Shown here: in pieces, positions 1,650-63,259 of the stretch
How the letters are laid out: every line of letters begins with the position of its first letter
Numbering within the stretch: the first letter of the stretch is position 1
Assembly: GCA_024679065.1 (NCBI GenBank)
Contig: JAGIQG010000016.1
Coordinates: 8,618,001-8,682,000 of the forward strand
Direction of reading: 5' to 3'
Length of the DNA stretch: 64,000 bases
Source: Sphyrna mokarran
Taxonomy: Eukaryota
Position numbers and translations under genes: made by a program
The notes under the pieces: model-generated
What the model saw: only the letters and a program-made list of their open reading frames with translations
What the model was told of the DNA's origin: nothing
Database searches by the model: none

Positions 1650-1681
1650 TCAGTAAAGAAGACCATCCCGGCACTGGCTGC
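1650..1681 (-). CDS. Probable terminal coding exon, (G)SQCRDGLLY-stop
   Basis: Strong acceptor ccttatttctttcag|GCAGCC lies 271 nt downstream of the 1953 donor. The phase-1 frame reaches TGA at 1652-1650. Minus-strand AATAAA at 718-713. Confidence 0.5.
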
Positions 1682-1952
1682 CTGAAAGAAATAAGGTTTA
1701 TTTTTAATTAAATAAAGAAAAAAAAATAAAAAGTTCCCTCATTGACTTGTTTCCTATCATCTTTGATAATAGCGATACATTTGTAACATTTGTCATACCC
1801 GTACGAAACCAAATAGTGCTTTGGAAGGGAGATAATTAAAAAAAAAATAATGTTAACCCTCCGGTGCAAGGACAGATAATTTGCGTTGAAGCAGCAATTT
1901 TCCAAAACATCGTGTTTCCTTGAAAAAAAAATCTGTTCATTTGCATGCTTAC

Positions 1953-1979
1953 CCCTATCTTTGCGGCTAAAATTTAGAC
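1953..1979 (-). CDS. 27-nt micro-exon GLNFSRKDR
   Basis: atgcttcaccag|GTCTAAATTTTAGCCGCAAAGATAGGG|gtaagc; Lys at position 7. Confidence 0.85.
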
Positions 1980-2132
1980 CTGGTGAAGCATAAATAGAAT
2001 GGAATAAATTCAGAGAACTATTAGAATTCACAATCAGCGAGTAGTGATTTGCTTGGACTGTGGCTGATTATTATTTATCAGCGTTTAGAGGCTAGCTTGG
2101 TGTTGAACAGTGGCTGAGAAAATTCATCATCC

Positions 2133-2731
2133 TTTCATTCATCTGTTGTAGCGTCTGCATGGTCTCCCCAATGTGCCATGCTTCCGGACATCCTTCGGGA
2201 CAATGGATGAATGAACATCGCTCGACAATCACCAGGGAATTCTGTTTCCTTCCTGTTGACGAACACTTCAGCGGCCCCCGGCATTCGGCCTCTGACCTTC
2301 GGGTATGCATTCTCCAAAGCATCCTTCACGACGTACGACAACGCAGAATCGCTGAGCAGAGGCTGATAGCAAAATTCGGCACACATGAGGACGGTCTCAA
2401 CAGGGATCTTGGTTTATGTCGCACTATCTGTAACCCCCACGACTTGCCTGGGTTTGCTAAACCACACTTACTGTACTGTCTGGAGATATCTCTTTAAACT
2501 GGGCTTATTGCTCCTTCCACTAACATCGTTGGCCTCTTTAATACTTGAATAGCATGTTAGGTGTAAAGACTCGCATTCTAATTAGTAATATGTAAACTGT
2601 GTGTGCTATTACATGCTCTGTCTGAGGCCTGAACTCTCCATTGGCCTGACGAAGGGGCAACCCCGAAAGCTTGCGAGTTTACAATCAAATAAATTGGTTG
2701 GACTTAAACCCGCTGTTGTCAGATTTCTTAC
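2133..2731 (+). mobile_element. Penelope-like element 3' fragment (GIY-YIG endonuclease C-terminus plus pseudo-LTR) with inverted 5' piece
   Basis: Plus ORF MNEHRSTIT...LPVDEHFS...HSASDL...RRIAEQRLIAKFGTHEDGLNRDLG; minus ORF GCPEAWHIGETMQTL; ends aataaattggttggacttaaacc...gatttcttac. Confidence 0.85.
2640..2676 (+). ncRNA. Minimal hammerhead-ribozyme-like motif in the Penelope pseudo-LTR
   Basis: CTGACGA (2646-2652), GGGG-CAA-CCCC hairpin, GAAA (2665-2668), palindrome AAGCTT (2667-2672). Confidence 0.6.
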
Positions 2732-3564
2732 CAAGCTCAGGAACGAAAGAGAGATTATAAGTGAGAAGGAGAGACCAAATAAGCGAGAAGTACTCAGGCA
2801 CCATCATTTCTTCGTTAGTTTAAATACGCTCTGCACGATTACTCAGTAAATATGTTCAACGCTGCTGCAGACTGGAGTGAGGCTGAACACTCTTGGGAAA
2901 AAAAAAATGGACTTGGACGAAGATAGAAACAATTCCGACATTCGGAAACACGCCGATGATGAGGCTGTAAAAGCTACATTCTTCTTTCGGGAAGGTTAGG
3001 ACAAACAACACGATCTCTGATATTTTGTCATCATGATTGTATTCCCATATAAGACATGAGATGTATGATTGCATCTTGCGATATTTCTGTGGAACGGTAT
3101 TGATGCGGTCAGGAGATACCCTTTGTTCTCTCATAAACAATGTTGTTGATGTATTCGGGGGTGACCTGGAAGTTAGCCATTCTACAATGTGGTTCCAAAA
3201 ACATAATTCGTGCGTATCTTGTCGCCAAGGGTCCTACTTCATTCTCTGACCTCGAGCTTCAATCTCAAGGATAAAAAGATCAATTTGTGAGCCAAAAGAA
3301 TCCAAAGGGCTTGCGTAATTCTATCGAGGAAACTACATAAATGTACGTTTCCAATGACAGGAATAATCCAAACGTTTACGTCTTTATGCATGCATTTGAT
3401 TTTTCTCTTCCCGCAAAAAAATCATTTTTCTTAGAAAACACAGTCGTCTTCATCACTTGTGTTTCATTCCAAACGGCAATTAGGCTCATACTAATGGATG
3501 TAAAAGTGAACAAGACAACTTGATCGGTCAACACGGCACCATTAAATCGATTAATTATACCCAC

Positions 3565-3600
3565 CTAGGTCATTAAGGTTTTCTTTCAGTTTATCGAGTG
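3565..3600 (-). CDS. 36-nt micro-exon ALDKLKENLNDL
   Basis: tcgtcatttgcag|CACTCGATAAACTGAAAGAAAACCTTAATGACCTAG|gtgggt. Confidence 0.9.
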
Positions 3601-3974
3601 CTGCAAATGACGAGATAGAATAAGTTGAAATTTCATCTGACATATGTCTGAATCGAATAAGATTTATTTAAGTGAGAGTAGCACATTGATTGTTCGTATT
3701 ACGTCATGGAACTGACCAAACCTGATGTGATAGGTCATGTGGATGAAATGTTAATTGGAAAGTTTGGCATGGAATCCGCGAGGAACATTAGAATTAAGTC
3801 AGTAGATCAACACTAGGTTATGCAAATTGACCCAATGACTTGAATTTGATTCAATCACGTAAGTGAGGATTACATCATTGCTTTATGATATTAACGCGAG
3901 GAAGCAAATCTTTGTTAGTATTGGAAGATGCATTGGATCATGACTCATGTTTGGTATTCAACTTCATTGCTTTC

Positions 3975-4352
3975 ATTGCCTACAAAAGATGGTGAATGTA
4001 GCCCAATCCATCACGGAAAACAGCCTCCGATCCATTGACTCTGACTATACTTCCCACTGCGTCGGCAAAGCAGCCCTAGTTAGGGACTCCACACACCCTG
4101 GACATTCTCTCTTCCACCTTCTTCCGTCGGGAAAATGATACAAAATCTTAGGTCACGTGCCAACCGACTCAAGATCAGCTTCTTTCCTGCTGCTGTCAGA
4201 CTTTTGAATGGACTTACCTTTCATTAAGTTGATCTATGACTATAACATTAATTCTACACTCTCCATGGACAGTATACTTTGCTTCCTTAATACGCAAGGA
4301 ACAATACTTTTCTCTGTACGTTAATACATATAACAATAAATCAAATCAAATC
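3975..4352 (+). mobile_element. Rex1/Babar-type LINE 3' fragment
   Basis: LQKMVNVAQSIT...L.SIDS.YTSHC.GKA....DSTHPGHSLFHLLPSGK; aataaatcaaatcaaatc tail. Confidence 0.8.
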
Positions 4353-4465
4353 GAACTTAATGACATTGTCAGAGCTACATTGAATGTTTTGATCCAAATA
4401 ATCTCTACCAACTGGCGATTTAAACGACACCGAGGAACCATCATTTGCTTGCAATACAAAAAAGA

Positions 4466-4610
4466 ACAGGTTAAAGTCTCCTAGGTTTATTTGGTAGCAC
4501 GAAAATTCGGAGTGCTGCTCCTTCAAATAAACCTGTTGAGCTTTGACTTGGTGTTGCGAGACGTTTTAATGTACCTATCCCACCCTAACGCCAACATCGC
4601 CACATCATGC
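4466..4610. mobile_element. Two back-to-back inverted Penelope pseudo-LTR remnants
   Basis: Minus strand gaaggagcagcactccgaa...caaataaacctaggagactttaacctg abuts plus strand caaataaacctgttgagctttgacttggtgttgcgagac. Confidence 0.65.
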
Positions 4611-6229
4611 TTCCAAAAATGACTTGCATTGTAGTGTCCATAGCGCAATCACCTGTTTAATGACAGAGTGTAATAGAAAATGTCATTCATTTTATCTCCG
4701 ATTTATTTCGAGTGCCAACTCTGCAGAGAAGTGATGAGCAACATTTCGTAATGTTATAGCAACCATGTAAATGCAACTTGTTTCTATCCTTAGAAATCAA
4801 CTGCGTTCCGGGTATATTGATGTATTAATAGATTTAATGACCGAATTCACTGCAGTCAGTTAGAATTCCAAATGTAGCATAGATCTGACTTTTAGAATAG
4901 CTGGTCAGATCAGAATTGCCCAGCGAAATACCACAGGACCAGCGTTCAGTTCTCCTGGCATTAGCCAACTTATCGCACTGCCATCCGTGCTCCTATTCAC
5001 CCTAAGTTAACTTCAACCATCATTGATCTAATCACTGGTGTGCATTGTTCAAACTCCTCAACTATAAATTTCCAAATATATTTCTTCGAAATCAATAAGT
5101 GATGTCGCTCACTTTGTAATTTTCCGCAGGTCTCAAATATTTCATTGGTTCTGTAATGCTAGTCTTATTAGCTTCCCGCAATTGAATGATAACCAAAAAT
5201 AAATATTTAAAGTCCAATAATGTGTTTCAAAATCCTCACAGTATTTCCACCTATCTTTATGCAATGTGGATGTTTTTCTTTCTGATAATGGTCTATTTCA
5301 CTATTTTCTACTCATTTAAATTATTTGTTTCTACAGCTTAATATAGGGCTTCTGTGAGGTTTTATGAAGTCCCATGAGCTAATAATATTGGCAATGGTGC
5401 TGTAGCTGATGATCCCCGAAACAAAGTAGTAACATATTCGACAAGATCGCTTTAGCAATGAAGACAGTTAATGAAAATATATTTATTACAAATACGTAAA
5501 TACTATTTCCTCAGTCTTACCGATATCCTCTGAATGTCCCGTGTTCTGCATGTTGTGTTTGGTTGAAATGATGTAGATATATTGAGAAATATAAGTAAAA
5601 TGAGTCAGGACTCAGAATTTGCTCACGTTGAAATAGGAAGGATAAAGTTGAGATGAATTTTGTCATAAAAGAGATGATTGTCAGATACGTACATAAAACG
5701 TCTTTATTGACAATGTTGTGGGAAAAAGTAACATTACGAAGTTTGAGAGATAATCGTTTTCAGTAACAATGAAGTGAAGTTTTATTCTCATACTTAGCGG
5801 ACAATATCACTACGGTAGCTTTTGGAAATGAAATTGATGTAATTTATACAATAAAATTGAAAGTTCATCGGTGAAGCGGTGGACATGCCAAAGTTATCTG
5901 CCGTTGGGGAAAAATAAACAAACAGACCGTCCATTCCACGAATAACTTTTCAGCATGCAACTCTTTCCTCCTTTTCAAATCTGGGCAATATATGACTCTA
6001 GACTACCATGACACGATAACTATCAATTGCCCTTTGTATTTGTCAAATACACCTAGAGGCATTACGGGTGGCCAACAGATATTTGTTTTGCCAGCGAATC
6101 TCAAAAATCCATGTAAGTATTTAAAAATGTACAGTTGCTGCGGTAAGGTGAGCTTAATTAGTATACTTGGAACGAACACGTCAAAATGCTGAGACGATCA
6201 CTGAATGTTATAGTCCCTAAAGTGTAGAT

Positions 6230-6530
6230 AGAAACCATTTTGCCCAACGACCAAGCGCCGACTCTGACAGAACAGGCCCACTCCCACGCCCTATCCACAT
6301 AAACTTACATATTCAGCAGGGCGAATCGCTTTAAGCAGCGTGTCCTGGGACACAAAAGTAGAATTTAACATGACCAATCTGCCTAACATGCATACATATG
6401 GACTCTAGGAGGAAACCTGAGCACCCGGAACAAACCGATGGAAACACGGGTAGATCATGCAAACTCTAGACATGCAGGCCCACGAGGGTCCAGTTTAGTG
6501 AGGCAGCACTATTAACTAGTATGATACGGT
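6230..6530 (-). mobile_element. Decayed V-SINE (HE1-like)
   Basis: ggaggaaacctgagcacccggaacaaacc...tgcaaactc is the reverse complement of a V-domain core. Confidence 0.65.
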
Positions 6531-6900: not shown

Positions 6901-6927
6901 CTTTCTGTTTGTTTGCAAGCTTTAGTT
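6901..6927 (-). CDS. 27-nt micro-exon ELKLANKQK
   Basis: tattctctttag|AACTAAAGCTTGCAAACAAACAGAAAG|gtaaga. Confidence 0.9.
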
Positions 6928-8247: not shown

Positions 8248-8283
8248 CGCAATCTTCGTAGTCACTTTTTAGTTTATCGACCA
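8248..8283 (-). CDS. 36-nt micro-exon VVDKLKSDYEDC
   Basis: cttttcttcgacag|TGGTCGATAAACTAAAAAGTGACTACGAAGATTGCG|gtaagt. Confidence 0.9.
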
Positions 8284-10370: not shown

Positions 10371-10397
10371 CTGATTCTTTGGACTTTATCTTTCCGT
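10371..10397 (-). CDS. 27-nt micro-exon DGKIKSKES
   Basis: ttttttcttgtag|ACGGAAAGATAAAGTCCAAAGAATCAG|gtaact. Confidence 0.9.
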
Positions 10398-12252: not shown

Positions 12253-12288
12253 CACATTGCTTGATATTGGCTTTCATTTTCATGATAT
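12253..12288 (-). CDS. 36-nt micro-exon DIMKMKANIKQC
   Basis: atctccttacag|ATATCATGAAAATGAAAGCCAATATCAAGCAATGTG|gtgagc. Confidence 0.9.
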
Positions 12289-12647: not shown

Positions 12648-12674
12648 CTTCATCTTTCTTAGCGAGATTTTGCT
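12648..12674 (-). CDS. 27-nt micro-exon EQNLAKKDE
   Basis: ctgtaccttacag|AGCAAAATCTCGCTAAGAAAGATGAAG|gtacgt. Confidence 0.9.
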
Positions 12675-14816: not shown

Positions 14817-14852
14817 CACAATCTAGAAGCGTATTCTTCAATATCGCTATCT
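14817..14852 (-). CDS. 36-nt micro-exon EIAILKNTLLDC
   Basis: ccattgcgtacag|AGATAGCGATATTGAAGAATACGCTTCTAGATTGTG|gtgagt. Confidence 0.9.
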
Positions 14853-15126: not shown

Positions 15127-15153
15127 CTTCATTTTTCTGGGTATTTCCTCGCG
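15127..15153 (-). CDS. 27-nt micro-exon ARGNTQKNE
   Basis: atattgtttaaag|CGCGAGGAAATACCCAGAAAAATGAAG|gtaagg (AAG acceptor). Confidence 0.85.
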
Positions 15154-15670: not shown

Positions 15671-18600
15671 GAACCACAGAACATTAAAATACAGAAACAA
15701 GTCTGTTGGCCTTCTTGGCTGTGCTGAACCGTTTTTTCTGCCTAGTCCGACTGACCTGCGCCTGGAACATATTCCTCTACATCCCTCTCATCCATGTACG
15801 TGTCCAAGTTTTCTTAAATGTTAGAAGTGAGCCCGCATTTACCACTTCATCTGGCAGCTCATTCCACACTCCCACCACTCTCTGTTTGAAGAATTCCCCC
15901 CCCCCAATATTTCCTTTAAACGTTTCCCCCTTCATTCTTGACCAATATCCTCTAGTTTATTTTTCCCTATCCTCAGTGGAAAAAACCTGTTTGCATGCAT
16001 TCTATCTATACCCATCATAATTTTATACACTTCTATATAAAATCTCCCCTCATTCTTCTACGCTCCAGGGAATAACGACCTAACCTATTCAAACTTTCTC
16101 TGTAATTCAGTTTCTCATGTCCCGGCAAGTTTTGCAAACCGTCTCTGCACTCTTTCAACCTTATTAATTTCCTTCCTGTAATTAGGTGCCCCAAACTGCA
16201 CACAATACTTTAAATTCGGCCTCACCAGTGCCTTATACAACCTCACCAAATCATTCCAACTCTTATACTCAATATTTTGGTTATAACGGCCAATGTTCCA
16301 AAAACACTCTATGACCCTATCTACTTGTGCCATCACTTCTAGGGAATTATGTGTCTGTATTCCTGATCCCTCTGTTCGACTACAATCTTCAGGGTCCTAC
16401 CATTTACCTTGTATGTTCTACCTTGATTTGTCCTTCCAAAGTGCAATACCTCACACTTGTCTGCATTAAACTCCAACTGCCATTTTTCAGCCCATTTTTC
16501 TTGCTGGTCCAAATCCCTCTGCAAACTTTGTAAACCTTTCTCACTGTCCACTGCACCTCCAATCTTTGTTTTATCAGCAATTTTACTGATCCAATTTACC
16601 ACGTGATCATCAGGTCATTGATATAAATGACAAACGACAATGGACCCAGCACTGATCCCTGCGGCATACAACTAGTCACAGGCCTCCACTCAGAGAAGCA
16701 ATCCTCTATTATCACTCGCTGGCTTCTTCCAGTAAGCCAGTGCCTAATCCAATTTACTACCTCTCCATGTATACCTAGTGACTGAAGCTTTCTAACTAAC
16801 TTCCCATGCGGGAACTTGCCAAAGGCCTTACTGAAGTCCATGTAGACAGCATCCACTGCCTTCCCTTCGCACACTCTCCTGGTAACCTTCTCGAGAAAAC
16901 GCTAATAGATTGCTTAAACATAACATTCCTTAATAAGCCCTTATCTATCCAAATATTTGTCGATCCTATCTCTTAGTACTCCTTCCAATAATTTACATAC
17001 TACTGATGGCAAGCTTATCGGCCTATAATTTCCCAGATTACTTTTCGAGCCTTTTTTAAACAGCAGGGAACATGAACTATCCTCCAATCATCTGGCACCT
17101 CATCTGTGGACACCGACATTTTAAATATATCTGTCAAGGCCCCTGCAATTTCAACAATAGTCTTCTTCAAGATCCGAGGGAATACTGGTCCTGGAGATGT
17201 ATCCACTCTGATTTGCCTCAAAATAGCAAGCACCTCCTTTTAATCTGAGTAGATTCAATGACCTCGCTACTTGTTTGCCTTACTGCCGTAGACTCCATGT
17301 CAGTTTTCTTAGTAAATACGGATTCAAACAAACATTTAATATCTCCCCCATTTCTTTTGGTTTCTTACAAAGCCGACCACTCTGATCTTCAAAAGGCCAA
17401 TTTTGTCCCTTATTGTCTTTTTACTCGTAGTATAACTGTAGAATCTCTTCGAATTATCCTTCACTTTGACTGCCAAAGCAGCCTCATGTCTTCTTTTAGC
17501 CCTCCTGATTTCGTTCTAAAGTAGTTCTTGCGCGTTTTATACACCTCAAGCGTCTTATTTTTTTCCCTGTTGTCTATACATGCCATGCACCTCTTTTTCT
17601 ATCAGATGTGGAATACCCTTCGAGGACGAAGTTCCTTATTCTTGTTCACTTTGCCTTTAGCCCTGACAAGAACATACAAATTCAGCACTCTCAAAATTTC
17701 TCCTTTGAAGGTCTCCCACTTACCAATCACATCCGTATCAGAGAACAGCCTGTCCCAGTCCACGCTTTTTAGATCCTTTCTCATTTCTTCAAGTTTGACC
17801 TTCTTTCCTGTTCAGAACCTCAACTTGAGGACCAGATCTATCTTTATCTATGATCAAGTTAAAATTAATGGCGTTATGATCAATGGAAACAAAGTGTTCC
17901 TCTACACACACTTCTGTCATTTGCCCTAACTCATTTCCTTATAGGAGATCTAATATTGCATCCGCTCTCGCTGATACTCTACATATTGATTCAGAAAAAA
18001 AAAATCCTGCAAACATTTTTACAAATTCCACACCGTCCAGACCATTAACAGTATGGGAGTTCCAATCTATTTGTGAAAAAAATAAAATCACCTACTATCA
18101 CAACTTTACATTTCGAGCAGTTGGTTGCTATCTCTCTACAGGTTCGCTACTCCAATTCTTGCTGACTATTGGGTGGTCTATCGTTCAACGCCATTAATGT
18201 GGCCATACCATTCCTGTTCCTCAGCTCCACCCATTATGACATCGGTAGACAAGCCTCTAATCTGTCCTGTCTGAGCATGCTGCAACATTATCCCTGATTG
18301 GCAATGCCACCTCCCGCCCTTTATCCCTCTGCATCTATCTTTGAAAGATTGGAAGCCTGAAACATTGAGCTGCCAGTCCTGCCCTTCCTGAAACCAAGTT
18401 TCACTAATGGCTATAAAGTCATAATTCCATGTGTTAATCTATGCCCTCAATTCGTCTGCCTTCTCCACAATATTCATAGTATTATAATAGACATACCCCA
18501 GAAGAGTATTACCACCTGACATAATCATTCTATTTGTGATTTTGTACGAACTATCACTATTTTTTCTCATTTCCACAATCTGCTCCGGCACTCTGGTTCT

Positions 18601-20118
18601 TACCCTCTGCAAATCTAGTTTAAACCCTCCCCAATAACACAAGCAAACCTCCCTGCAAACATATTCGTCCCCTTGTAGTTCAGGTGTAACCAACTGTCTT
18701 GTAGAGATCACTCCTGCCCTAGAAGAGGTCCCAATGATCTAGAAACCCTGCTTCCTACACCATTCCTCAGCCACTGGCGCATCTGGCTGAGCATCCTACT
18801 CTTACCCTCACTGGCACATGGTACGAAAAGAAATCCTGAGATTATTACCCTCAGGGTCTTGCTTTTTAACCTCCTACCAAGCTCTCTGTACTCACCCTTC
18901 AGGATCTCCACACTATTTCTTCCTACGTCATTGGTACTAATGTATACTATGACATTTCGTTGATCACCCTCCCGCTTCAGAATGCTATGCACATGATCAG
19001 AGACATCACTGACACTGGCACCCGGGAGGCAACAAACCATCCAGGAATATCTGTCACAACAACTGAACCTCCCGTGTGTACCTTTGAATATTGATTCCCT
19101 TATCACTTCCACTCTCCTTTTCTTCTTCTCCGCCACTCCCCCCCCCCCCCCCCCCACTACCACCTCACCTTCTGCGCTTCAGAACCAGACTCAGTGCCGA
19201 AGATCCGGCTGCCACAGCTTGTCCCAGATGAGGCATGGTCCACAACAGTATCCAGAGTGATATGCCTAGTATGGAGGGGAATGGCCACAGGGGAACCCTG
19301 CTCTCCTTGTCCTTTCCCCGTCCTCCGCCTCATGATAATCTAATTACCTGTGCTCTGCGACTTTGGTGTAATTACTCCCTGAAGCTACGATCCTTCTCAT
19401 CCAGCTCCTGCTCCAGTTCCCGAACACTTCCTGCAAGAGAAGCATTCCAGCATCCTGTCTGGCATCTTTCTACTCTGAAAAAAAAACTTACCGGAACCTA
19501 CCCTGGTCTTTGCCTGTTGACGCTGCAGCCGTCCCACTCTGCTCCCTCTCACTGCGCTGCCTGCTGATAGAGTGGTCTGTTTTTAAACCTTTCACGCACT
19601 ACTGGTGACGTCAGCATCTGCGCAGTCTTGGTACCATTTGGTAACACCCTTGCTCCCAGTCCTCTTTTTTTAGCCTGCCGTCACCGAGTCTTTTTTTTAG
19701 GTTAGGGAAGGGGGAAGGGTGGGAGATGTTACACGTGCAGTGTCTCCGGATTCCTCCCTGTTGAAAGTTACTGTACAGAAATCTTCCCAGGCCACCCCAC
19801 GGCCTACTTATCGTTTACTGATTTAACTGAAAAAAAACTCAAATGAAAAATATAGAAGGAAAATCAATCTCTTACCCTCAGCATTCATGACACGAATTGC
19901 CCCTTCTCTGCTTTGCTTCAGTTGAAAATAGAGGTCGATCTTCCTAGGTACGTAACTTTTAAATATAAAAAAAACTTTCCCAGGCCACTCCGTGGCCTAC
20001 TTCCGTTTTACTGATTTAACTGAAAAATCTCGAATAAAAAGGTAGAAAAATAATCAATCTCTTACCCTCAACACTCCTGACACAAGTCACTCCCTCTCTG
20101 CTTTGCTCAGTTGGAAAA
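15671..20118 (-). mobile_element. Near full-length decayed CR1 LINE (ORF1 SGNH esterase-like, ORF2 APE endonuclease and RT)
   Basis: ORF1 MVCCLPGASVSDVSD...VYISTNDVGR; RT VYMDFSKAF, PQGSVLGPL.FVIYINDL, KIADKTKIGG, WAEKWQLEFNADKCEVLHFG; multiple frameshifts. Confidence 0.9.
19782..20118. repeat. Two diverged ~194-bp-period units at the CR1 5' end
   Basis: ttcccaggccac...ggcctactt...tttactgatttaactgaaaaa...aatcaatctcttaccctca...tctctgctttgct occurs at ~19782 and ~19976. Confidence 0.85.
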
Positions 20119-20612: not shown

Positions 20613-20648
20613 CATATCCTTGACAGATTTCCTTCTGTTTCTGCAATT
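20613..20648 (-). CDS. 36-nt micro-exon ELQKQKEICQGY
   Basis: ccttttgtgcgacag|AATTGCAGAAACAGAAGGAAATCTGTCAAGGATATG|gtatgt. Confidence 0.85.
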
Positions 20649-24145: not shown

Positions 24146-26924
24146 TAATTGTCTGGCATGGATAGAAATATGTGGGACAAGGAACACTGCTGCCCTCAGT
24201 TTGTTGTTGTTAGCGGACAACACATTTCTGAAGTTAGGTACACAAATGAAACAGGCTAAACTGCACTCAGAACCCCTCCATTAAAGATCACAAGAGAACA
24301 GATCCAGACAAGCAGGCAAAACGCATGCTTTTAAAATGCAAACAAGGTATAAAACACAAAGGGAACTGGACAGATGAAATCAATGGCAACTAAATTGCCG
24401 TTGGTTTCATCTGTCCACCCTCATCTAATCAAATCAGCACGACTGACCTAATCAAGTGATATCAGGAAGCCTCTATAGAAGCACCTAAGGAAAGGAATAA
24501 CAGAACTAAGGAGGCCTTCTTGGCCTCAAAAGACTTCCTGACATCAGCCAAACACCCATTGTTGAAGAAACCTCGGAGATTCTAGACCACTGATAAACCC
24601 ATCAGACAGAAACGATTACTATACTTAAACCATCGATACTGTACTTGAAAACATCGGAACAGAATGGTCAACGTCAAACACTGTAAACAAAACACTAACA
24701 TGTGAATCATACAACGTGTCAAAGTTCGAGTATAACTGTGGCCCATTGCGTTGGGCTTTCACAGTGCTTTCGGGACAGTGTTGTTTTTATATCCTGATTG
24801 CGTCTCCGTCGACGTTAAATAAATCTGTACTGCTGTTGAACCTCTGAGTCCGTAGTAGTCGTGTTCGCCCACTCGTGCTAACAGTCTTGGAATGGTAATA
24901 AATGCATGTACACCCGAAAATGGAGGCAAGTTATTGATTAGTTCGCATATTTCTGTTGTGCAAGTAACGACAAGCATTTATTATTCGCGCTGCTCATCCA
25001 TAAAAAAAGACTCAGGGCCTCTAATTAACGCCAAACGAACTGCATGCACACCACATACAAAGTTTCGGAACCAGTATTGCAAAACAGGGAACTCCTCATT
25101 GTTGAAAGACAATGGAAAAAAAAAAGATGTACGGAAACTTCACCATTTCCAAGTCCCCATTCAAGACGTACATAATCCTGCACGTAATAATTCAGTAAGG
25201 TAGATCCGAAACGCATTATGGAGGAAAAAACACTTTGGAGGTTAGCGACTTCTGCTATTGTGTGTCATCGGGTGTGTGCTACTGTTCAACGTGCTTATGG
25301 CTGATATGTTATCTCGACACTATTTGTCAGCCTCGCCCTATAACTTATTTCGCCTTGAGACCGAGAGATGTTTCGATTTCCTTCTAGTATGTACTTAGTG
25401 ACGAAAACATGATGAAAACTTAAGTTCGTAATGAAACAACAACATTTCCGGAAAGATGGAATGGAACGGTTGGACGAGTGTGTTTGCTTTGATTAAAAGA
25501 ATAATAGATTGCTGGAGGCAGCGTTTGTCCCAGAAACGTCCTGTTTCGTGAAGACTGAAGAATGCTGAATAAGTAGACTACTCTGAACATTTAGGGATAG
25601 GGATTCTCCAGCTGCGGGCGCCTCAAAGGAAGAGAATCCCACCCCGAGGTCAATGCGCATTTGTATGACCCACCCCTACAATTCCTTTGGCTGGCGCAAC
25701 GGGAAAATTCTGGTCCAGGTATGCCATCAACTGGTTGAAAATAAATCGGAGAAAACACTTACATTTGTTTCTACGTGAAACGTACTATAATTAAGGTGGT
25801 CTGAACAGACTTTGTTATTTTCTCTGGCTGGGCAGTCTTGAGGGCAAAAAAAAAGGGGCCACAGATCGGAAACATTGTAGGCCATTCAGCATCGAGTTCA
25901 GGAAAAAAATGTATTCTCTCAGAAGATGGCGAAAACGATGTTCTGCCGAAGAAGACTGCCGAGCCAATCACTAAATACAGCCAAGAAAGAAAGCGAAACA
26001 TTCCTCGGCTCTTAGGGTGAAATAATTTATAGTGAGAGTGCTGACAAACCGTGCTGAGATACAATATCAGCTATAATCACGTTGAACAGCAGGACACACC
26101 GAACGTCCGAATGATGGACTCCTGATCCAAATTTATACGTTCCTACGTATCTACAATGACGTACAAAGACGAACAAGAAACTAACAATTCGTGATAGTTG
26201 TGAGATTTGACCGTCCTAGTAACTATTCTGACAGGAGGAAATGCTTTGGTCAAAGCATTTGCTTTGGTCAAAGCATTTCCTAACATATTTGCAGGAAATA
26301 GTTATATCAAATATGTTTTTCAGTCCAGCAAGTATGTTGTTTTGAATCTTGAGAATGATGTATGTCCAATAGCGAATGGTCATAGATAAGGACCATGTCT
26401 GTCAAATAATTTTAAGATAATTATAAAGATTAATTTATGTTAAATGCAACTTAGTATTATATGCTAAACAAATAAACATCGGAGCTCCAGTTTAACTTCG
26501 CCATGAAAAAGCGTCCTTGTAAAACAAACTGTAGGCAGACTAAAATATGCATGAACAATAGCTCTCTTCTTAAAGACTACTTCGCAAATGGAGATACGTC
26601 GCTACTGGTGTATCTGCAGTAGTTTTGAGGACCCTGAACTAATTTCCAGGTGAATATTTAAATATTTGTTCGTCTGAAATTGGTTAATTTCCTTCCCCAT
26701 AGGGAAAACGATTCTTTTATCGGTACATACACAAAAAAAGGTAGCTCCATTGTTTGAAGTTCCAATTGCTAGCGTTTTCTGTCCAGATCTATCTGAATGG
26801 CTGAATTGAAATTCCCAAGATGCCATGTCGGTCATTCTTAATTATTATCTAATTTATAAGCTAGTAATATTTATAATACTCTCATAGGATCAGCGGACTC
26901 TCATTTTCTCAATATAATTTGTTC

Positions 26925-28014
26925 AGGTTCACAAGTCTCTGAAGGTGTCCTCACAGGTGGAGAAGGTGATAAAGAAGGCGTATAGTATATTAGCTTTCAT
27001 AGAAAAGGGTATAGAATACAAGAGTAGGAGTTTGATGTTGCAGTTGTATAGAACGTTGGTTAGGCCTCACTTGGAATACTGCGTCCAGTTCTGGTCGCCG
27101 TACTATCGGAAGGATGTGGAGTCCTTGGAGAGAGTGCAGAGGAGGTTTACCAGGATGCTGCCTGGTATGGAAGGACTGTCTTATGAGGAACGATTAGATA
27201 GACTGGGGTTGTTTTCCCTTGAAAGACGTCGGCTTAGAGGGGATCTCATAGAGGTGTATAAGATTATAAGGGGTATAGATAGAGTAAATGGAGGTAAACT
27301 TTTTCCACCTTTAGAAATGGATAGGACGAGGGGTCATGGCCATAGGGTGAGGGGGGCTATGTATAGGACGAATATTAGAGGGCAGTTTTTCACACAAAGG
27401 GTAGTGGGGGTGTGGAATGCACTGCCGAGTAAGGTGGTGGGAGCAGGCACGCTGGGGCTGTTTAAGGGTCTCTTGGACAGCCACATGAGCGGTATGCAGA
27501 TAGAGGGATATATTAGGACTGTTTAACTACGGCTTTTTTCCACAGGTAATTCGGTCCATACTTGACCAACATTGAGCATGCATTCGGCAGGTGGTGCGGG
27601 TACAGCTCTTGGCTGTTGATTCATGGGTTGCCTGGTACCTCATGTCGTAAATGAGTGCTTTATGTGGACCATCTGAAGGGCACCATGACAGCTCAGAGAC
27701 TATCGATGTGGCTGTGCAGACACTTGGAATTGGGCCGGTGCCTGCGGGAGTTTGCGCGTTCTCCCCGTGGTTGCGTGGGTTTTCTCCGGACACTCCGGTT
27801 TCCTCCCACAACCCAAAAATTCGCTCTTAGGCTGATTGGGAAACAAATTGTCCCTATAGTGTGAGAATTTTCCATATTAGGAATAATATATATATTATTA
27901 TATAGGAATAATATAATAGGATAATGGATTTGCTACTATATAGTTATGACGGCGGCGCGGGCTCGTTGGGCGGAAGGGCCTGTTTCCCGTGCTGTGTTGC
28001 TCTTTAAAAAAAAA
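26925..28014 (+). mobile_element. Young 5'-truncated CR1 LINE whose long 3' UTR contains a V-SINE core
   Basis: Uninterrupted 193-aa ORF2 C-terminus (26945-27526); V-domain gagtttgcgcgttctccccgtggttgcgtgggttttctccggacactccggtttcctcccaca at ~27748-27810; CR1-type tail gaagggcctgtttcccgtgctgt and poly(A). Confidence 0.9.
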
Positions 28015-28077: not shown

Positions 28078-28104
28078 CAGCTTCTTTCTGCTGAAAGTCG
28101 TTTT
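28078..28104 (-). CDS. 27-nt micro-exon ENDFQQKEA
   Basis: cttattccttcag|AAAACGACTTTCAGCAGAAAGAAGCTG|gtaatt. Confidence 0.9.
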
Positions 28105-30221: not shown

Positions 30222-30257
30222 CTGCTTCCACAATATCACTTTTCAACGTTTCTATTA
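30222..30257 (-). CDS. 36-nt micro-exon VIETLKSDIVEA
   Basis: ttattttgtgctag|TAATAGAAACGTTGAAAAGTGATATTGTGGAAGCAG|gtgagt. Confidence 0.9.
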
Positions 30258-32291: not shown

Positions 32292-32318
32292 CTTTTGTTT
32301 TATCGATGAGATATTCAT
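32292..32318 (-). CDS. 27-nt micro-exon DEYLIDKTK
   Basis: aaatatatacag|ATGAATATCTCATCGATAAAACAAAAG|gtactg. Confidence 0.85.
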
Positions 32319-33183: not shown

Positions 33184-33219
33184 CACATTCAGCAAGGCGG
33201 GATTTCAAGTTGTCAATTT
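33184..33219 (-). CDS. 36-nt micro-exon EIDNLKSRLAEC
   Basis: cattctttttaaag|AAATTGACAACTTGAAATCCCGCCTTGCTGAATGTG|gtaagc (AAG acceptor). Confidence 0.9.
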
Positions 33220-36051: not shown

Positions 36052-36078
36052 CTTTCTGCTTTTGCCGAAAAAGTTCTC
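36052..36078 (-). CDS. 27-nt micro-exon GELFRQKQK
   Basis: cttacttttacag|GAGAACTTTTTCGGCAAAAGCAGAAAG|gtaatg. Confidence 0.9.
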
Positions 36079-41571: not shown

Positions 41572-41607
41572 CTGCATCTTGTAGTTCCTTATTTAAAGCT
41601 GCTATTT
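41572..41607 (-). CDS. 36-nt micro-exon EIAALNKELQDA
   Basis: ggtattcatgacag|AAATAGCAGCTTTAAATAAGGAACTACAAGATGCAG|gtgaga. Confidence 0.9.
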
Positions 41608-42387: not shown

Positions 42388-42414
42388 CTGAGTCTTTTTC
42401 TCGCGTTTCCTCAT
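42388..42414 (-). CDS. 27-nt micro-exon DEETREKDS
   Basis: attttatcttcag|ATGAGGAAACGCGAGAAAAAGACTCAG|gtaacg. Confidence 0.9.
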
Positions 42415-49140: not shown

Positions 49141-49167
49141 CGTCAAGTTTTTCCTTTGCTTCGAGTA
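49141..49167 (-). CDS. 27-nt micro-exon VLEAKEKLD
   Basis: catcatattttag|TACTCGAAGCAAAGGAAAAACTTGACG|gtgagg. Confidence 0.85.
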
Positions 49168-50438: not shown

Positions 50439-50453
50439 CATTGTTTGCTTTTT
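50439..50453 (-). CDS. Candidate 15-nt phase-1 micro-exon EKANN
   Basis: aacttgttcacag|AAAAAGCAAACAATG|gtaagg. Good splice sites and frame-preserving, but outside the 36/27 pattern. Confidence 0.4.
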
Positions 50454-51884: not shown

Positions 51885-51886
<2 letters not shown>

Positions 51887-54724: not shown

Positions 54725-54760
54725 CTAATTGTTCGCATTTTTTTTGGAGGTCCTTTATTT
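54725..54760 (-). CDS. 36-nt micro-exon EIKDLQKKCEQL
   Basis: gatctgttttgaag|AAATAAAGGACCTCCAAAAAAAATGCGAACAATTAG|gtgagc (AAG acceptor). Confidence 0.9.
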
Positions 54761-55741: not shown

Positions 55742-55768
55742 CTGAATCTTTTTCTTGCAAAGCAGCTT
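55742..55768 (-). CDS. 27-nt micro-exon (Q/E)AALQEKDS
   Basis: gtgttctcttacag|AAGCTGCTTTGCAAGAAAAAGATTCAG|gtaaat. Confidence 0.9.
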
Positions 55769-55785
55769 CTGTAAGAGAACACGAA

Positions 55786-58700
55786 AAGGGCCATTTGCAA
55801 TTGAACCAGAGGGGCACCAATATCCTAGCAGGGAAATTTGCTACGGCTCAGGAAGAGGGTTTAAAATAATTTGTGAGCTGTAGGCCAATGTTGAAAGCAG
55901 TGAGGTACTGAGGAGGGTCTCAAGGTCGCAGGAGTGTACCGGCAGACGGGAAGGTGGGTTGAAGTGTGTCTACTTCAATGCAAGGAACATCAAGAATAAA
56001 GTAAGTGAACTTGGAACGTGGATTAGGACTTTGGACTAGGATGTTGTGGCCATTACGGAAACATGGTTAGAACAAGGACAGGATTGATTACGGGTATAGA
56101 TGTTTCAGTGAGAGTGCGGAAAATGGTAAAGGAGGTGGAGGAGTAGCATTATTAATCAAGGATAGATTAACGGATGCAGAAAGGCAGTGCGAGAGGAGAA
56201 TCTGCACACTGAGAAATGTGGCTGAAGTTAGAAATAGGAAAGGACCGGTAACTTCATTACGGATTTTCTATAGGCCCCCAGTTAGTGATAGAGATGTGAA
56301 GGAAGAAATTGTAAAGCAGATTACGGATAGTTGTGGAGCCCTCAGCGTATTTGTCATGGGTGATTTTTATAGGTCGAATAGTTCGGATGGAACAGTTTTT
56401 TATAGTGTGTGCAGGAAGGTTTCTTGACACAATATGTGGATAGGCCGACAAGAGGTGGGGCCACATTGGACATGGTACTAAGTAATGAACGAAGTCAAGT
56501 GTTAGATTTGTTTGTGGGAGAGCACTTTGGATATAGTGACCACAATTCAGTGTCTATCAGTATTGCAGTGGGGAGGGACAGGGCCGTACAGCAAGTCAAT
56601 TAGGGGTGGGTAATTATGATGCGACTAAGCTAGTATTAAGGAGCATAAGGTGGGAACAGAAACTGTCAGGGAAAGACTCAAATGACAGATGAAGCTTGTT
56701 CAAGGAACAAATACTGCATATCCTTGACAATATATTCCTGTCAAGCAGAGAGGAGGGAGCCATCTCAGTTATCAGAGAGGAAATGGCCGATTGAAGAAAC
56801 CATCTCATCTCTTTTGAGGTTGATTGGAGGTTCAATTTCTTGTAAAGACGTTGAATATCTTGTAAAAGAGGTTGAATGTCTTGTAAAAAATGAAAAAAAG
56901 TATATGTGAGGATGAGAAAACAAAGCTCATTTGAGTTGCTTGAGGGTTACAAGATAGCAAGGAATGAACTATAAAAAAGGACTCAGGAGAGCTAGGAGGG
57001 AACACAAAATACCCTTGGTGTGTAAGATCAAGGAAAACCCTAAGACTTTTTACTCTTCTGTGAGAAATAAAAGAATGACCAGGGTGAGGTTAGGGCTGGT
57101 CAAGAATAGTAGTGGAAAGTTGTGCATAGAATCAGAAGATAAAGGAAATGTGATGAATGAATTCTTCAGTGTTCACTAAGGAGAGGGCCCATGTTTTTGA
57201 GGATGAGAGTATGATACAGCCTGATAGGCTGGAGGGGGTAGATGTTCTGAGGGAATATGTATTAGCAATTTTGACGAAAAGAAAGGGTCGATAAATCCGC
57301 TGGGTGAGATAAGATGGACAAAGGAATTTTTGGAATACAAAGGAGGAAATTGCAGAAACTTTGGTTTTGATTTTGGGTCCTCACTACCCACGGGGATAGT
57401 GCTAGAGAACTGGAGAGTAGCGAGTGTTGTTCCTCTGTTTAAGAAAGGGAATAAGAATGACTCTGGCAATATCAGGCTGGTCAGGCTTACTCCGATGGTC
57501 GATAAGTTAATGGACAGGATTCTGAGGGATATGATTTATGATCATTTGGAAAGATGCAGCTTAATTTGAGATAATCAAAATGGATTCGGGGAGGGTACGT
57601 CCTGCCTCACGAATTTGATTGAATTCTTTGAGGAGATAACGAAGTGTGTGGATGAAGATAGAACAGTTGATGCCCTATATATGGACTTTAATAAGGTGTT
57701 TGATAAGTTTCCCCATTGTCAGCTCAAGAAGAAAGTAAGGAAGTGGGAAATAAAGGGAAAGTTGGCTGATTGGATAAGTAACTGACTGTCTCATAGAAGA
57801 CAGAGTGATCGTGGATGGAATATTTTCAGACTAGTGACTATTTACCAGGAATCTGTGCTGGGTTCTCTGCTGTTTGTGATTTTTACCAATGAATTGGAGG
57901 AGGAGGCTGCAGGATCGGTCAGCAAATTTGGGTCAGCTGATGACACCAAAATTGGTGGACAGTGGATGAGTTGGAGGCTGGTGTAGGCTGCAAAGAGACA
58001 TTGATAGGATGTAGAAGTGGGCCGGAAATGGCAGATAGAGTTTAATCCTGATAAGTGCGAGGTGATTCATCTTGGTATGACAAATTAGAATGTAGTTTAA
58101 AAAGACAACAGCAGGGTCCTGATGAATGTGGAGGAACAGAGATCTTGGGATTCATATCCACAGATCTCTGAAATTTTCCCTCAAGTGGACAAAGCCGTGA
58201 AGAAGGCCTATAGTGCGTTAGTGATTATACACAGGCGATTAGATTTTAAGAGCTGTGGGATTATGCTGCAACTGTACAGGATCTTGGTGAGATCATATTT
58301 GGAATATTGTCTGCAGTTCTGGTCACTTCACTAAAAGAAAGACGTGGGAGCATTGGAGAGAGTGGAGAAGAGTTTTACCAGGATGCTGCCCGGTTTGGAG
58401 GTTATGAGGAAAGATTGATGGAGCTAAGGCTTTTCTCTTTAGAGTGTAGTTGGATGACAGGGGACTTAATAGAGTTTTATAAGAAGATGAGGTGGATAGG
58501 TAGGATGAACGCTGAGTGACTATTTCCTTAGAGGATGTAGCTATTATATACTATATAACTATTATATAACTGTAAGGATCATGACGGGAGATATAGAAGG
58601 GATGTCCAAGGTAGGTTCTTTATTCAGTGAGTGATTGGGGTGTGGTATTGACTGCCTGCTGTGACAGTGGAGTTGGGCATATAAGATCTTTCAAGCAGTT

Positions 58701-58830
58701 ATTGGGTAGGCACACAGAACACATCAGAATGATGGGGAGTTGGATAGCTTGATCTTGGTTTCGGACAGACCTTGGCACAACATTGAGCACCAAAGGGCCT
58801 GAACTGTGCTGTACTGTTCTGTGTTTCTAA
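55786..58830 (+). mobile_element. Decayed CR1 LINE (end of ORF1, ORF2 APE and RT, 3' tail)
   Basis: LKCVYFNARNIKNKVSEL, VMGDF, QYVDRPTRGGATLDMVL, EHFGYSDHNS, WRVASVVPLFKKG, LEYCLQFWS; tail aagggcctgaactgtgctgtactgttctgtgtttctaag. Confidence 0.9.
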
Positions 58831-59412
58831 GTTTATTTTACTTTTCATTTGGACAATGGAAAATTCTGCTGAATGTCTAGTCGAGGGAAGCTGCCATTCT
58901 TTTAAAGCAAATCTCATTTACTTTCGGGATAATTTGCTAATTTCAGTGCAGTAACAAAGTTAATTAGTCATTCACAACAGGAGGAAGATTCTGAAATTAG
59001 GCCTTGGCCCTCCATCTATTGTTGCCATACTGCTATTTCCCAACTGTTTTCTTTTTGCCAATTTGATCATTTTCATTATCATGTATGGAAATGGCTATTT
59101 TTAAATTTCAATAGGTTTATTAGTGATTGAAACATTCAAGCTATGTTGGAAAAAAGATGTCTCTTGTCCTGTCTTACTTCAAGGAAAAACTGCACAAATT
59201 CAGATAACCCTAGCAGGACACCCCTCAACATTCATGCTGCTACACGTTCAGACTTCCTTGTAAACTATATTTTTCTTCACGTAAATTACTCGGACATTTC
59301 TTGAAGGCCATGTTTGGTGCAATTTAACCAGATCGTTCATTCGAGAAAACATGGAATTTATTGCAATCAAAAAAATCACGTTAGGTCCGAGGTAGGGTTA
59401 TCCAGAACTTAC

Positions 59413-59439
59413 GGAACTTTTGCTGCAGGTCGTCAAATT
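59413..59439 (-). CDS. 27-nt micro-exon EFDDLQQKF (36-nt-type sequence shortened by 9 nt)
   Basis: gcttcctttttag|AATTTGACGACCTGCAGCAAAAGTTCC|gtaagt; aligns with EIKDLQKKC of exon 54725. Confidence 0.8.
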
Positions 59440-59819
59440 CTAAAAAGGAAGCAGAGAATACAGATATTTTATTAAACATATTGATTTGAAATTTATAATT
59501 TTACCTGATTTCCCCAGTAGCTTTGCAAAACCTCTTCACACAGCGAATCACTAATGCCCACCAGAATACTGTTACTGAAGCATTTTTGTTGCAATATCCT
59601 CTAGGTTAATCGCAGTGTTGTAAGTGCCTTGAATTATGGTTTTATACAAAGGATTTGCAGCACGAAAACATGCGCTGAATGCCGTTGCTATGAACAAAAA
59701 AATTGAATTTATTCGGTAATGCGAGAATATATGTTCAGAGTTTCTTCAGAGAACATGAAGTTCTACTCCACAATTGCTTTGAAAGAGCTATAGAAAGCAA
59801 ATTCAGAATTTATTGCAGT

Positions 59820-59968
59820 GAAACAGAAAATGCTGGAATAAACATGACCGACATCTGCGGAAAGAAACAATGTTATTTCGGATCCTATTGTTATAGTTCT
59901 AATAACTCATTTCTTCTCTTAGATGTGGCGACACCTTTTGAGTTGACCCAACATCTTCTGTGTCTTTT
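59820..59968. mobile_element. Decayed self-inverted Penelope-derived or MITE-like short repeat (related piece at ~62455-62560)
   Basis: Begins aaacagaaaatgctggaa...catctgcggaaagaa and ends with the roughly complementary ttctcttagatg...caacatcttctgtgtc. Confidence 0.45.
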
Positions 59969-61437
59969 TGCATGTCAAGCGTTCACAGTATTTTGGTATT
60001 ATCCAGATTACTTATCCGTACACAATTCCTCTCCAGAACAGGAAAATGAACAGATTTTACGGAGTTTAAGTTCGAATAGTATGGCTGCAACAAACGTTTG
60101 CAGGTTTACATTTCCATGAGTTTGCCTCAGCAACATGGAAGGACATTTTTCCAAAAACAATTGTATGACAGCAAGGAGAAATGTTTGTTATAGTAAATCT
60201 ATTTGCCGTATGTACCTTCGAAACGGAACTCGTGATATTGGCAAACATATGGAATGCGTTATTTCTGTGTAATGCATTCCAGCGCATACCTGCAGAGCAG
60301 GCTATGAATTTTGATTGTGCTGAATTTGGCGCAGATCAATAGGTATGATTATGTTGGTGCGCTCAAACTTTTTGACTGCTGTGGAACCTGCGATCATGTT
60401 GCGGATTAATCAATCACACCGCTGAAGCACGCATTGTAGGTTATCGACAATTTATTACCGAAAAGGTCGGTAACACTTTCTGGTCGAATTAATATTTGGA
60501 TGGTTGAATCCGTTAATATTCTGGCCAACAAGGACAATAGGTTTCATGTGCTGGAGAGCTGAACAACACGAATAAAACCGCACTCGAACATCACATTCTG
60601 CCTTGTTCAGGGTGGCAGCTTTCTGGTATTTACAGTGACACGCAGTGTTCAGATGATAATTGCCAATACTGCGTGAATTTGCTACGCTGCCCACTTGCTT
60701 TATACATGAATAACAGAAAATTCAGCATCGTTTGCGTTTTGTAGCCCTAATCAAACATCTCGCTTTTCGAGCACATGCTATCATGAAGGTTGTTGAAAAA
60801 ACATTGTTGTTGATAACACATTTCAATGTGTCTCACGCTGGAAAACGATTTTGAGAATTTCCTTTAGCAATGCATTTCAGTTTCGACTTTGGGCTTTCCA
60901 CAAAGGCGGGAATTCTATTGTGATGCTTGTAACTCTAAACCCCGCTCAGCTTACCATGTTTTTCAATCACTTTGGCGTTCATAGCATTAACACGCGACCA
61001 CACATAACTACGATTTATCAATTCAGTTGTTTTTTCTTTCTCTACCTTTGGAACAACTGTTATGATGTTTGTTCCTGGCCCAAATCAGCATGCAAAACAG
61101 TGAACAGACTGTTAATTACTGCGAATGGAATGAAATGCCAGGGATATATATAATAATCAGTCCGGAATGGTCCTTAAATATCGGCCGAATTTTGAAGGGC
61201 GACCTTTAGATATTACCTTAATAATGATGTTGGATCAACGTCATCTTTAACAATCCTGAAAAGAAACACTGCCCCGAAAGTGTGTTGCCTTTGTAAATCA
61301 TCATATCCGGCTGTACCAGCAGTGTTCAGGGAAATATTTTAACAAATTTCCGAAGTCAAAATATGTCCGACAGCTAACGTTAACAGACTAACGATCATAC
61401 AAATCATACGATCTCAGAGCTAAAATTGATACTTTAC

Positions 61438-61473
61438 CCATTGAAGAAGCTTTATCATTTAAGGTGATCATCG
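61438..61473 (-). CDS. Candidate 36-nt micro-exon AMITLNDKASSM
   Basis: ctctaagatcag|CGATGATCACCTTAAATGATAAAGCTTCTTCAATGG|gtaaag. Right length, phase and Leu5, but poor polypyrimidine tract and no 27-nt partner found. Confidence 0.35.
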
Positions 61474-63232
61474 CTGATCTTAGAGCCTCAGTGGCATAGA
61501 ATTAGTGTGTGGTGCCTTGAACTTGTGGGAATAAAGACAATACTCTCAATAAGACATTCAAAATGGTAACAATCGACAGCGGCCCGTGTTGCTAGGCTGG
61601 TAGTGCAACGGTTTAAACAAATTATCAATGGCATAGATATAAATTTGGTGCCAACTTCAACTGTAATTTAATTGTATCTTCGAAAATGCTCGCTTGTCGT
61701 TGGAGAGAGAAAAAAAAACAATTTGTTCCAGTAGGAATGGTCAATGATCCATCATCCCTCTGGCAATTTTGTTACGTTAAATCCAAAGAAATGCGCTGGC
61801 TAATTAACCTCCTTTTGAAATCAAATGTTTCGCATCTCTACATATTTGCCGAAGCAATATGCGTTATGATATATGTATACACTCCGTCAATGCGCACCAA
61901 AGACGCACTCGTATTTTACTCCACTGACCTGTGCGTTATTGATAGCCCTTCAAAGCCTTAAAAAATGGTCCGCCTCTTCCTTAAATTTAGTCAAAGGTCC
62001 AGTATTCACCACATCTGCGGTGGTGATTTCTGTAGAGTTAAAACTCTTGTACAAATTTAATTTCTGCTCATCACTGTTTTATATCCGCCCTTAGTTATCC
62101 TAAAGTTCCGAGTGATATTTATGACTGCTTAACAAATGAAACAACCACTCCAAATACAGACAGCCACTCTCACTTATTATCGTCTACGTCTCCAATAAAT
62201 GCCCTCTCATTTTTCTAAACTCTAGGATGTGTATGTCGAAATTGTGTAAATCATTTTCGAAAGTCAAACCCCTCAATCTCCTCAACTTGCTGTGAATCGC
62301 CACCACTGCATTTCACTTCGAGTAAGAGGATCAAACTTACCCTTGTTCTGTCATTGTTCATAGAAATTGCGCTATGATGAAACAACAGTTCACAGCGACA
62401 GAGGATGACATTTATTGGTTCTCAGCTGCAGTAGGTACCTTTAGAAATGTAAAACCAACAGAGAAAATGCTGGAAAATCTTAGCAGAACTGGCAGCGTTT
62501 GCATGGACTGAAAAGAGCTGACATTTCGAGTCCAGTCCTTTGTCAAAGCTGAAACGTATATGTAAAAAGGGGGTGAAAAAGAGAAGCAGAATTAAAACGG
62601 TTTCGTATGTCCAACACATCATTGCTTGCTATATTTTGTCCACCATTGCTTTTTGGCTACATTGCATAAGGAGGATAGTTAAGTGCTCTTTGTTTGGTAA
62701 AATACGAGTGTGTCTTTGTTGCGCATAGACGGAGTGCGTGTATTTATCATAATATATATTTTGCCTTTGGCAAAGACGAAGAGATGCATAAACAATTGAT
62801 TTCAAAAGGACCTTAATTGGTCAACGCGTTTCTTTGGATTTAACGTAACAAAACTGCCAGAAGAATGGATGGATCATTGACTTTCCTACTGCAACAAATT
62901 GTTTTTTCTCTCTGTCCAATGACAAGCGAGCATTTTCGAAGATGCAATTAAATTACAGTTGATGCTGGTACCAAATTTATACTTGGGCCATTGGTAATTT
63001 GTTTAAACCGTTGCACTACCAGCCTAGTAATCGCTGTCAATTGTTATCATTTTGAATGTCTTTATTCCCACAAGTTCAAGGCACCACACTCTAAGTCCAT
63101 GCCACTGAGGCTTGAATTGGAGGATTTCCGGCGAATCGTGAGAAAATCAGTTTGCAAAGAAAAAAAAAGAACAACAGAATGACAAAATTCATCACTTTAT
63201 TGTTAGAGGAAGGAAATTAATATTTCAATCAC

Positions 63233-63259
63233 CTTTTACTTGTCCTTTCATTTGTTCTT
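63233..63259 (-). CDS. 27-nt micro-exon EEQMKGQVK
   Basis: ttcctacttaacag|AAGAACAAATGAAAGGACAAGTAAAAG|gtgatt. Confidence 0.75.

Follow-up and report, generated by a model that had tools for sequence, protein, structure and literature searches.

The locus analyzed here raises the question of what kind of gene is built from minute exons of two alternating sizes, how far such a gene extends, and to which known system it is related. The exons were noticed on the minus strand of a 64-kb stretch of the Sphyrna mokarran genome (positions 8,618,001-8,682,000 of contig JAGIQG010000016.1, called C668 below, within a 2.77-Gb assembly), which we refer to as the window and within which positions are counted from its first letter. 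The window lies wholly inside, and would be a 3'-ward part of, a single giant gene of micro-exons or a tight tandem of such genes. We think it probable that this gene codes for protein and covers 374 kb or more, that its phase-1 micro-exons encode a rod, and that it belongs to the lineage of BTN, BG and TRIM genes associated with B30.2 (PRY-SPRY) domains while using a new exon module.

The first part of the answer concerns the reality of the exons. A preliminary description, made from the letters of the window, had listed 22 minus-strand segments bounded by AG and GT (13 of 27 nt and nine of 36 nt, 675 nt in total), all in phase 1-1 and free of stops, of which 17, from 42414 to 1953, alternate between the two lengths. 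All of this is confirmed: joined, the 22 exons contain no stop in 224 conceptual residues, and the alternation of the 17 is unbroken. In a scan that ignored exon content and relied on approximate textbook splice-site matrices, the minus strand of the window gave nine candidates at 27 nt and eight at 36 nt, 16 of these 17 being open in the phase-1 frame; the other lengths from 12 to 60 nt gave a mean of 0.53 and a maximum of two, and the plus strand gave two candidates at 27 nt and one at 36 nt. The shuffled-sequence control proposed in the preliminary description was also run, and 60 local 3-mer shuffles of the window yielded a mean of 0.77 and a maximum of three. The micro-exons first noticed in this window are real.

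The second part concerns size, for which the original proposal of a 61-kb gene is not borne out. Iterated exon models continue to find members throughout the 300 kb to the right of the window; at a leave-one-out cut-off of 12, 77 exons pass over the resulting 364 kb, the plus strand giving three and one. With seven weaker exons re-added by hand, the set comprises 84 exons (44 of 27 nt and 40 of 36 nt; 2628 nt, 875 residues) that span 357 kb and reach 295 kb beyond the right window edge, separated by introns of 274 to 18,678 nt (median, 2832); one member, at 177927 in extended coordinates and with a GC donor, is doubtful. The splice-only scan of the same 364 kb returns 26 and 29 candidates at 27 and 36 nt, respectively, compared with a mean of 3.8 at other lengths, and 49 of these 55 are open in the phase-1 frame, the other two frames giving 17 and 23. 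The two lengths alternate at 61 of the 83 junctions of the 84-exon set, compared with 41.9 in shuffles. Exon-to-exon identity averages 43-45% (maximum, 78%), by which the exons would be old duplicates, and in a crude estimate over the 68 nearest exon pairs the proportion of synonymous differences exceeds that of nonsynonymous ones (pS 0.52, pN 0.36).

To the left, a pattern trained on the 27-nt exons of the window (143 genome-wide matches, the first 100 examined) has three held-out matches on the same strand, at 8,612,226, 8,609,465 and 8,603,350. The gene thus extends at least 14.6 kb past the left edge of the window in addition to the 295 kb or more on the right, and is predicted to span at least 374 kb, its ends lying at or below 8,603,350 and at or above 8,977,170, with at least 87 putative exons (the 84 plus the three on the left); the whole span would form a single transcript. 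This affects the end that had been proposed for the gene at 1650, where an implied terminal exon (1650..1681, minus strand) holds 10 codons followed by TGA. Because family exons continue leftward and its acceptor is modest (5.1, compared with a member median of 10.2), this stop is probably not the end of the gene and at most a minor alternative end. No paralogous match was found for positions 1200-2050 of the window, and a 33-residue frame at 1577-1675, considered as a PRY remnant, was rejected by Pfam. At the other end, a 27-nt-type match at C668:9,046,012 (minus strand), outside the mapped arrays, is either a further 5' part of the gene or an extra family member.

The window exons, all on the minus strand and given here in the direction of the gene with leave-one-out scores in brackets, begin with these four: 63233..63259 (27 nt, phase 1-1; 22.7), 59413..59439 (27 nt), 55742..55768 (27 nt; 34.9) and 54725..54760 (36 nt; 31.4). 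The second of these is of a minor subtype that is hydrophobic at positions 2, 5 and 9, as 36-nt exons are at their beginning, and is below the cut-off (6.1; acceptor 10.1, donor 4.0); similar exons are seen at extended coordinates 90687, 138802 and 162962. An atypical 27-nt exon follows at 49141..49167 (5.2, also below the cut-off; acceptor 6.8, donor 8.7). The alternating run of 17 opens with the 27-nt exon at 42388..42414, found by the exon model. Its other 27-nt members lie at 36052..36078 (25.2), 32292..32318 (22.2), 28078..28104 (28.3), 15127..15153 (11.6, just under the cut-off, with a weak acceptor of 2.9 and a donor of 11.7), 12648..12674 (27.4), 10371..10397 (30.3), 6901..6927 (18.9) and 1953..1979 (15.1), the last in the window but not in the gene. 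The 36-nt members lie at 41572..41607 (30.6), 33184..33219 (22.9), 30222..30257 (21.5, with a weak acceptor of 1.6 and a donor of 10.8), 20613..20648 (22.1), 14817..14852 (21.7), 12253..12288 (20.1), 8248..8283 (25.9) and 3565..3600 (37.1). The three exons below the cut-off (59439, 49167 and 15153) were retained on their splice sites.

What these exons encode is indicated by their periodicity, which supports the original idea of a hidden gene in which a 36+27 module makes three coiled-coil heptads. In the alternating run, the unit positions that had been described as mostly hydrophobic are so in 8/8 (position 2), 7/8 (5), 8/8 (9), 8/8 (12) and 7/9 (16) cases, Ala counted, whereas position 19 is hydrophobic in 0/9 and is Lys in 29 of the gene's 27-nt exons. 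Hydropathy power peaks at period 3.5, where it reaches 14.6; none of 1000 shuffles exceeds 7.8. The 875-residue product has two Pro, 24 Cys and no transmembrane-like window; 19 of the 24 Cys occupy core positions 5, 9 and 12 of the 36-nt exon, and N-glycosylation sequons are at chance level (four, compared with 3.6 in shuffles). In the mechanism we propose, the 36-nt exon would supply core residues a-d-a-d and the 27-nt exon an a residue plus Lys at d, a pair making exactly three heptads. Since all exons are in phase 1-1, a second copy of a 36+27 pair, or the skipping of one, would keep both frame and register and shift the length by three heptads. The frame would also survive gain or loss of one exon by itself, but register is preserved only by the 63-nt pair, which would explain the alternation and make three-heptad length steps possible. 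Spliced into one helix, the exons would form an oligomeric α-helical coiled coil that has 875 or more residues and, if continuous, measures about 130 nm. Such a rod may dimerize the chains and hold paired B30.2 domains at a fixed spacing from the N terminus, as BTN and BG heptads do, and is most likely cytoplasmic. The core Cys fit interchain pairing but give no compartment, because BG cytoplasmic tails also carry Cys (PMC5938342).

The breaks in the alternation point to a third exon class, absent from the preliminary description. With the known members removed, 16 candidates of 15 nt are found on the minus strand and three on the plus strand, other lengths giving 1-10, and the 15-nt candidates sit where the 27/36 alternation breaks. 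The one in the window, a probable exon at 50439..50453 (minus strand; acceptor 8.9, donor 9.8) that was missed in the first reading, restores a whole number of heptads (36+15+27+27 = 105 nt, or five). A 15-nt pattern has two held-out matches on the correct strand in the closest paralogue, one of the matches there lying 5 kb before the 27-nt exon at 11,204,729. We consider the class probable rather than certain because the same pattern also matches twice on the plus strand inside the gene. Candidates of 21 nt are at background level (two and four); the length peaks are 27, 36 and, weakly, 15 nt. These minority 15-nt exons, and the variant 27-nt ones, would add register shifts to the rod.

Further variation was observed along the gene. 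Its 5' third (extended 275555-358000; L022-L030) shows runs of 36-nt exons, 27-nt exons beginning like 36-nt ones (357973, 296314 and 275555), 18-nt candidates (278879 and 291251) and Pro-containing 27-mers (341723 and 279244); most of these variant types lie outside the 84-exon count. Between extended 55768 and 166113, the order 27, variant 27, 27, 36, 15, 36, 27, 36 seems to recur about three times, with introns that are no longer alignable except at three exon pairs. The only high-scoring 27-nt exon-like match with an in-frame stop (L021:9059-9085, minus strand; extended 273085) is possibly a dead exon. On the plus strand at C668:8,838,798-8,839,007 (L016:6798-7007), a 15-nt exon-like site is followed about 170 nt on by a 35-nt stretch that nearly duplicates a 36-nt exon and has a donor; both are inverted within an intron of the gene and are possibly a small inverted duplication.

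The gene is not alone, a feature that the preliminary description did not report. Genome-wide, the 27-nt pattern has 97 matches, compared with 45 for a control pattern: 18 in the window gene, 39 in clusters at 11.1-14.1 Mb of C668, seven on contig C1548 and 33 scattered, and 46 held-out matches lie in strand-coherent clusters. The 36-nt patterns match the same clusters on the same strands. On C668, the arrays, whose borders we infer, lie at 10.71-10.76 Mb (plus; 27-nt-type matches at 10,705,659-10,755,109, possibly an extra family member or members), 10.97-11.30 Mb (plus), 11.51-11.78 Mb (plus), 11.98-12.56 Mb (minus), 13.00-13.68 Mb (plus) and 13.83-14.30 Mb (plus). The array at 10.97-11.30 Mb is the closest paralogue, its exon at C668:11204729 having an in-exon peptide identical to that of window exon 42414. 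The window gene thus belongs to a multigene family with at least six arrays on C668 and another on C1548. The array on C1548 has seven matches of the 27-nt pattern on the minus strand at 99.1-101.4 Mb. It sits inside a large TRIM/BTN B30.2 region (~91-113 Mb), which may be the birthplace of the family. Elsewhere, 36-nt-type and 27-nt-type matches 1.8 kb apart on the plus strand of C794 (41,429,772 and 41,431,595) are possibly another member.

It is the neighbors of the paralogous arrays that would tie the family to the B30.2 lineage, again a link absent from the preliminary description. A Pfam search in which 150 of 228 SPRY candidates were scored identified SPRY exons at C668 11,925,637 (minus), 13,716,103 (plus) and 14,320,472 (plus), respectively 55 kb, 34-82 kb and 21 kb downstream of a same-strand array, and a SPRY motif, but no Pfam match, marks a fourth at 11,879,310 (plus), 105 kb after the 11.51-11.78 Mb array. 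Each of the four B30.2 exons seen at 11.8-14.4 Mb follows an array of its own strand, and two of them (11.879 on the plus and 11.926 on the minus strand) converge at a distance of 46 kb. At 8.4-14.4 Mb of C668, we found no RING (150/391 candidates scored), no B-box (150/325) and no BTN-type immunoglobulin constant domain (IgC; PF22705, 88/88). The 11.51-11.78 Mb array was at first thought to lack B30.2, a view withdrawn once the motif 105 kb downstream was found; because that motif first escaped detection, negative B30.2 results are weak. The SPRY exon at C1548:98912563, once considered as the B30.2 exon of the C1548 array, was likewise withdrawn, as a RING and a B-box lie 19 kb upstream of it. 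A PRY motif matched 0/4 of the paralogous B30.2 exons and is uninformative.

Several points weigh against the reading of the window gene as a member of the B30.2 lineage spanning at least 374 kb. No B30.2 exon was detected downstream of it by three tests, each of which finds 3/4 of the paralogous exons, nor for the 10.97-11.30 Mb paralogue by the same tests. The link between arrays and B30.2 exons is one of position and strand, and the SPRY exon nearest the C1548 array belongs to an ordinary TRIM. The absence of stops from the phase-1 frame of the 84 exons (0, compared with 54/84 and 48/84 in the other frames) is partly circular, since the model demanded open frames, and exon gaps of up to 18.7 kb could conceal gene borders. 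The domain searches covered part of the RING, B-box and SPRY candidates, as given above, and 150 of 1261 V-set candidates. Lastly, 12 natural 40-residue stretches, which consist of an exon plus flanking intron and not of spliced product, had no match at E ≤ 10 among 7999 protein candidates, which is a weak negative. As to the missing B30.2 exon, two of the three tests overlooked the 11.879 exon (misses that are not independent), so that a divergent B30.2 in the window gene is possible; in the window gene and its closest paralogue the domain would have diverged beyond detection or, like that of BG tails, have been lost.

Comparison with known systems helps to place the gene. TRIM coiled coils are short and are not known to be built from dozens of micro-exons. 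TRIM-B30.2 genes share with the present family the succession of a coiled coil and B30.2, and more than 100 such exons lie on C1548, the site of one array; they differ in that no RING or B-box was found near the C668 arrays among the candidates scored. Enterophilins are soluble proteins of the mammalian intestine that combine a long leucine zipper with B30.2 and are much shorter than the product here; if this description is accurate, they offer a long heptad rod with B30.2 and no ectodomain. An SNX1/EGFR role is reported for enterophilins (PMC13749957). Chicken BG genes have 27-37 heptad exons of 21 nt (a few of 18 or 24), one heptad each, and their tails are contrasted with BTN tails ending in B30.2 (PMC5938342, PMC4046983). 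There too, a long coiled coil is encoded by dozens of very small exons whose first codons are split, the true heptad crosses exon borders, the rod has cysteines and the genes form a multigene cluster. In contrast, here 36+27 nt make three heptads, the exons number at least 87 and are spread over 374 kb or more, sister genes appear to retain B30.2, and no Ig, RING, SPRY or convincing transmembrane exon was found in the 364 kb read, which stop short of the gene's 5' end. BTN genes, described as having very short heptad exons, few heptads and then a B30.2 exon (PMC6790196), are reported in cartilaginous fishes, with heptad number variable in squamates (PMC12841164); their heptad exons are short and symmetric as here, where they are far more numerous and of other sizes, but BTN proteins consist of IgV, IgC and transmembrane segments with only a few heptads. 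The genome's BTN-type IgC matches map to C1548, C224 and elsewhere, but not to the surroundings of the arrays. The likeness to the small symmetric exons of BG and butyrophilin tails, which the preliminary description had drawn, is upheld by the 84 phase-1 exons; the window gene resembles BTN and BG heptad segments but has neither the IgC of BTN nor the 21-nt exon size of BG. Our literature searches turned up no paper on a 36+27 exon module or on the micro-exon family.

The same comparison suggests the alternative that survives best, itself a sub-case of the reading we prefer: a membrane receptor of BG/ERMAP/butyrophilin type, with signal peptide, Ig-V and transmembrane exons beyond the region read and the rod as a giant cytoplasmic tail. 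That BG genes have this layout, with 27-37 heptad exons and tail cysteines (PMC5938342), makes it possible, as do exon-like matches that run to 8,977,170 and perhaps 9,046,012, past the region read, and the fraction of V-set candidates scored. The Ig and transmembrane exons that had been expected just to the right of the window were, however, not found in the next 300 kb, no BTN-type IgC was found in the whole interval of the arrays, with every candidate scored, and a partly sensitive Ig-V motif had no match at 6.65-32 Mb of C668, an interval that takes in the 5' side of every array; on balance we regard such a receptor as doubtful. Less likely still is that the arrays encode stand-alone structural coiled-coil proteins and the nearby B30.2 exons are separate genes. 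The window gene and its closest paralogue, both without detected B30.2, would fit this, as would the positional nature of the link and the C1548 array, to which no B30.2 is assigned; against it stands the four-out-of-four arrangement on matching strands, with its converging pair, and those B30.2 exons have no RING, B-box or IgC of their own among the matches scored. That the window gene is a decaying pseudogene that has lost its terminal domain seems very unlikely: although it has no detected B30.2, inverted exon-like pieces in its introns and the 27-mer with a stop at extended 273085, this stop is the only one among 85 high-scoring exon-like matches, the splice ends of the 84 open ones (AG and GT/GC) are intact, and the heptad pattern persists. 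Finally, the rod can hardly be the extracellular stalk of a tetherin/TMCC(aT)/PLVAP-like or CD23-like type II membrane protein, its 19 core Cys serving as interchain disulfides. Tetherin orthologues are flanked by CILP2 and PLVAP (PMC10617486), and here PLVAP (PF06637) is on C838 and not C668, which removes the tetherin cluster; no Lectin_C was found on C668 (150/152 candidates scored), which removes the CD23-like reading; sequons are at chance level, and cysteines occur in BG cytoplasmic tails too.

Other features of the region are mostly mobile elements. LINE-type retroelement fragments in the introns (window 26918-27526 on the plus strand, 16118-16850, 18708-19430, 33789 and 58460) account for most long open reading frames (ORFs) of the window. 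A Pfam search of 212 ORFs, mostly on the minus strand, out of 379 non-LINE ORFs of at least 90 aa gave only retroelement-type domains above the cut-off, most plus-strand ORFs and four border-crossing minus-strand ORFs being left out. Intronic ORFs include a GIY-YIG ORF (L009:6388-7044, minus), probably from a Penelope-like element, and an RNase H ORF (L019:5284-5745, plus). The sole match of the alignment of 12 exon-plus-intron stretches among 1.84 billion representatives (P0001; E 1e-16), a tick tandem-repeat protein, was rejected because it aligned via intron-derived columns.

Returning to the micro-exon rod gene of the B30.2 lineage, we tentatively suggest that its family may form a third B30.2 branch beside TRIM and butyrophilin, without RING, B-box or Ig ectodomain, characterized by a rod of at least 130 nm, a two-exon three-heptad module and a multi-Mb cluster, with B30.2 in some members and a rod length set in evolution by exon pairs, and perhaps by splicing. 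The 36+27 module would then be a second route, independent of the 21-nt one, to long heptad rods made from symmetric micro-exons beside B30.2, and would bear on the relationships among BTN, BG and TRIM and on variation in heptad number. The modular design makes rod length directly testable through counts of exon pairs in different species and splice forms. The protein collections searched appear to lack this family, whose genes are each 300-600 kb long and less than 1% coding, and part of the immune-type gene repertoire of this lineage may therefore be unannotated.

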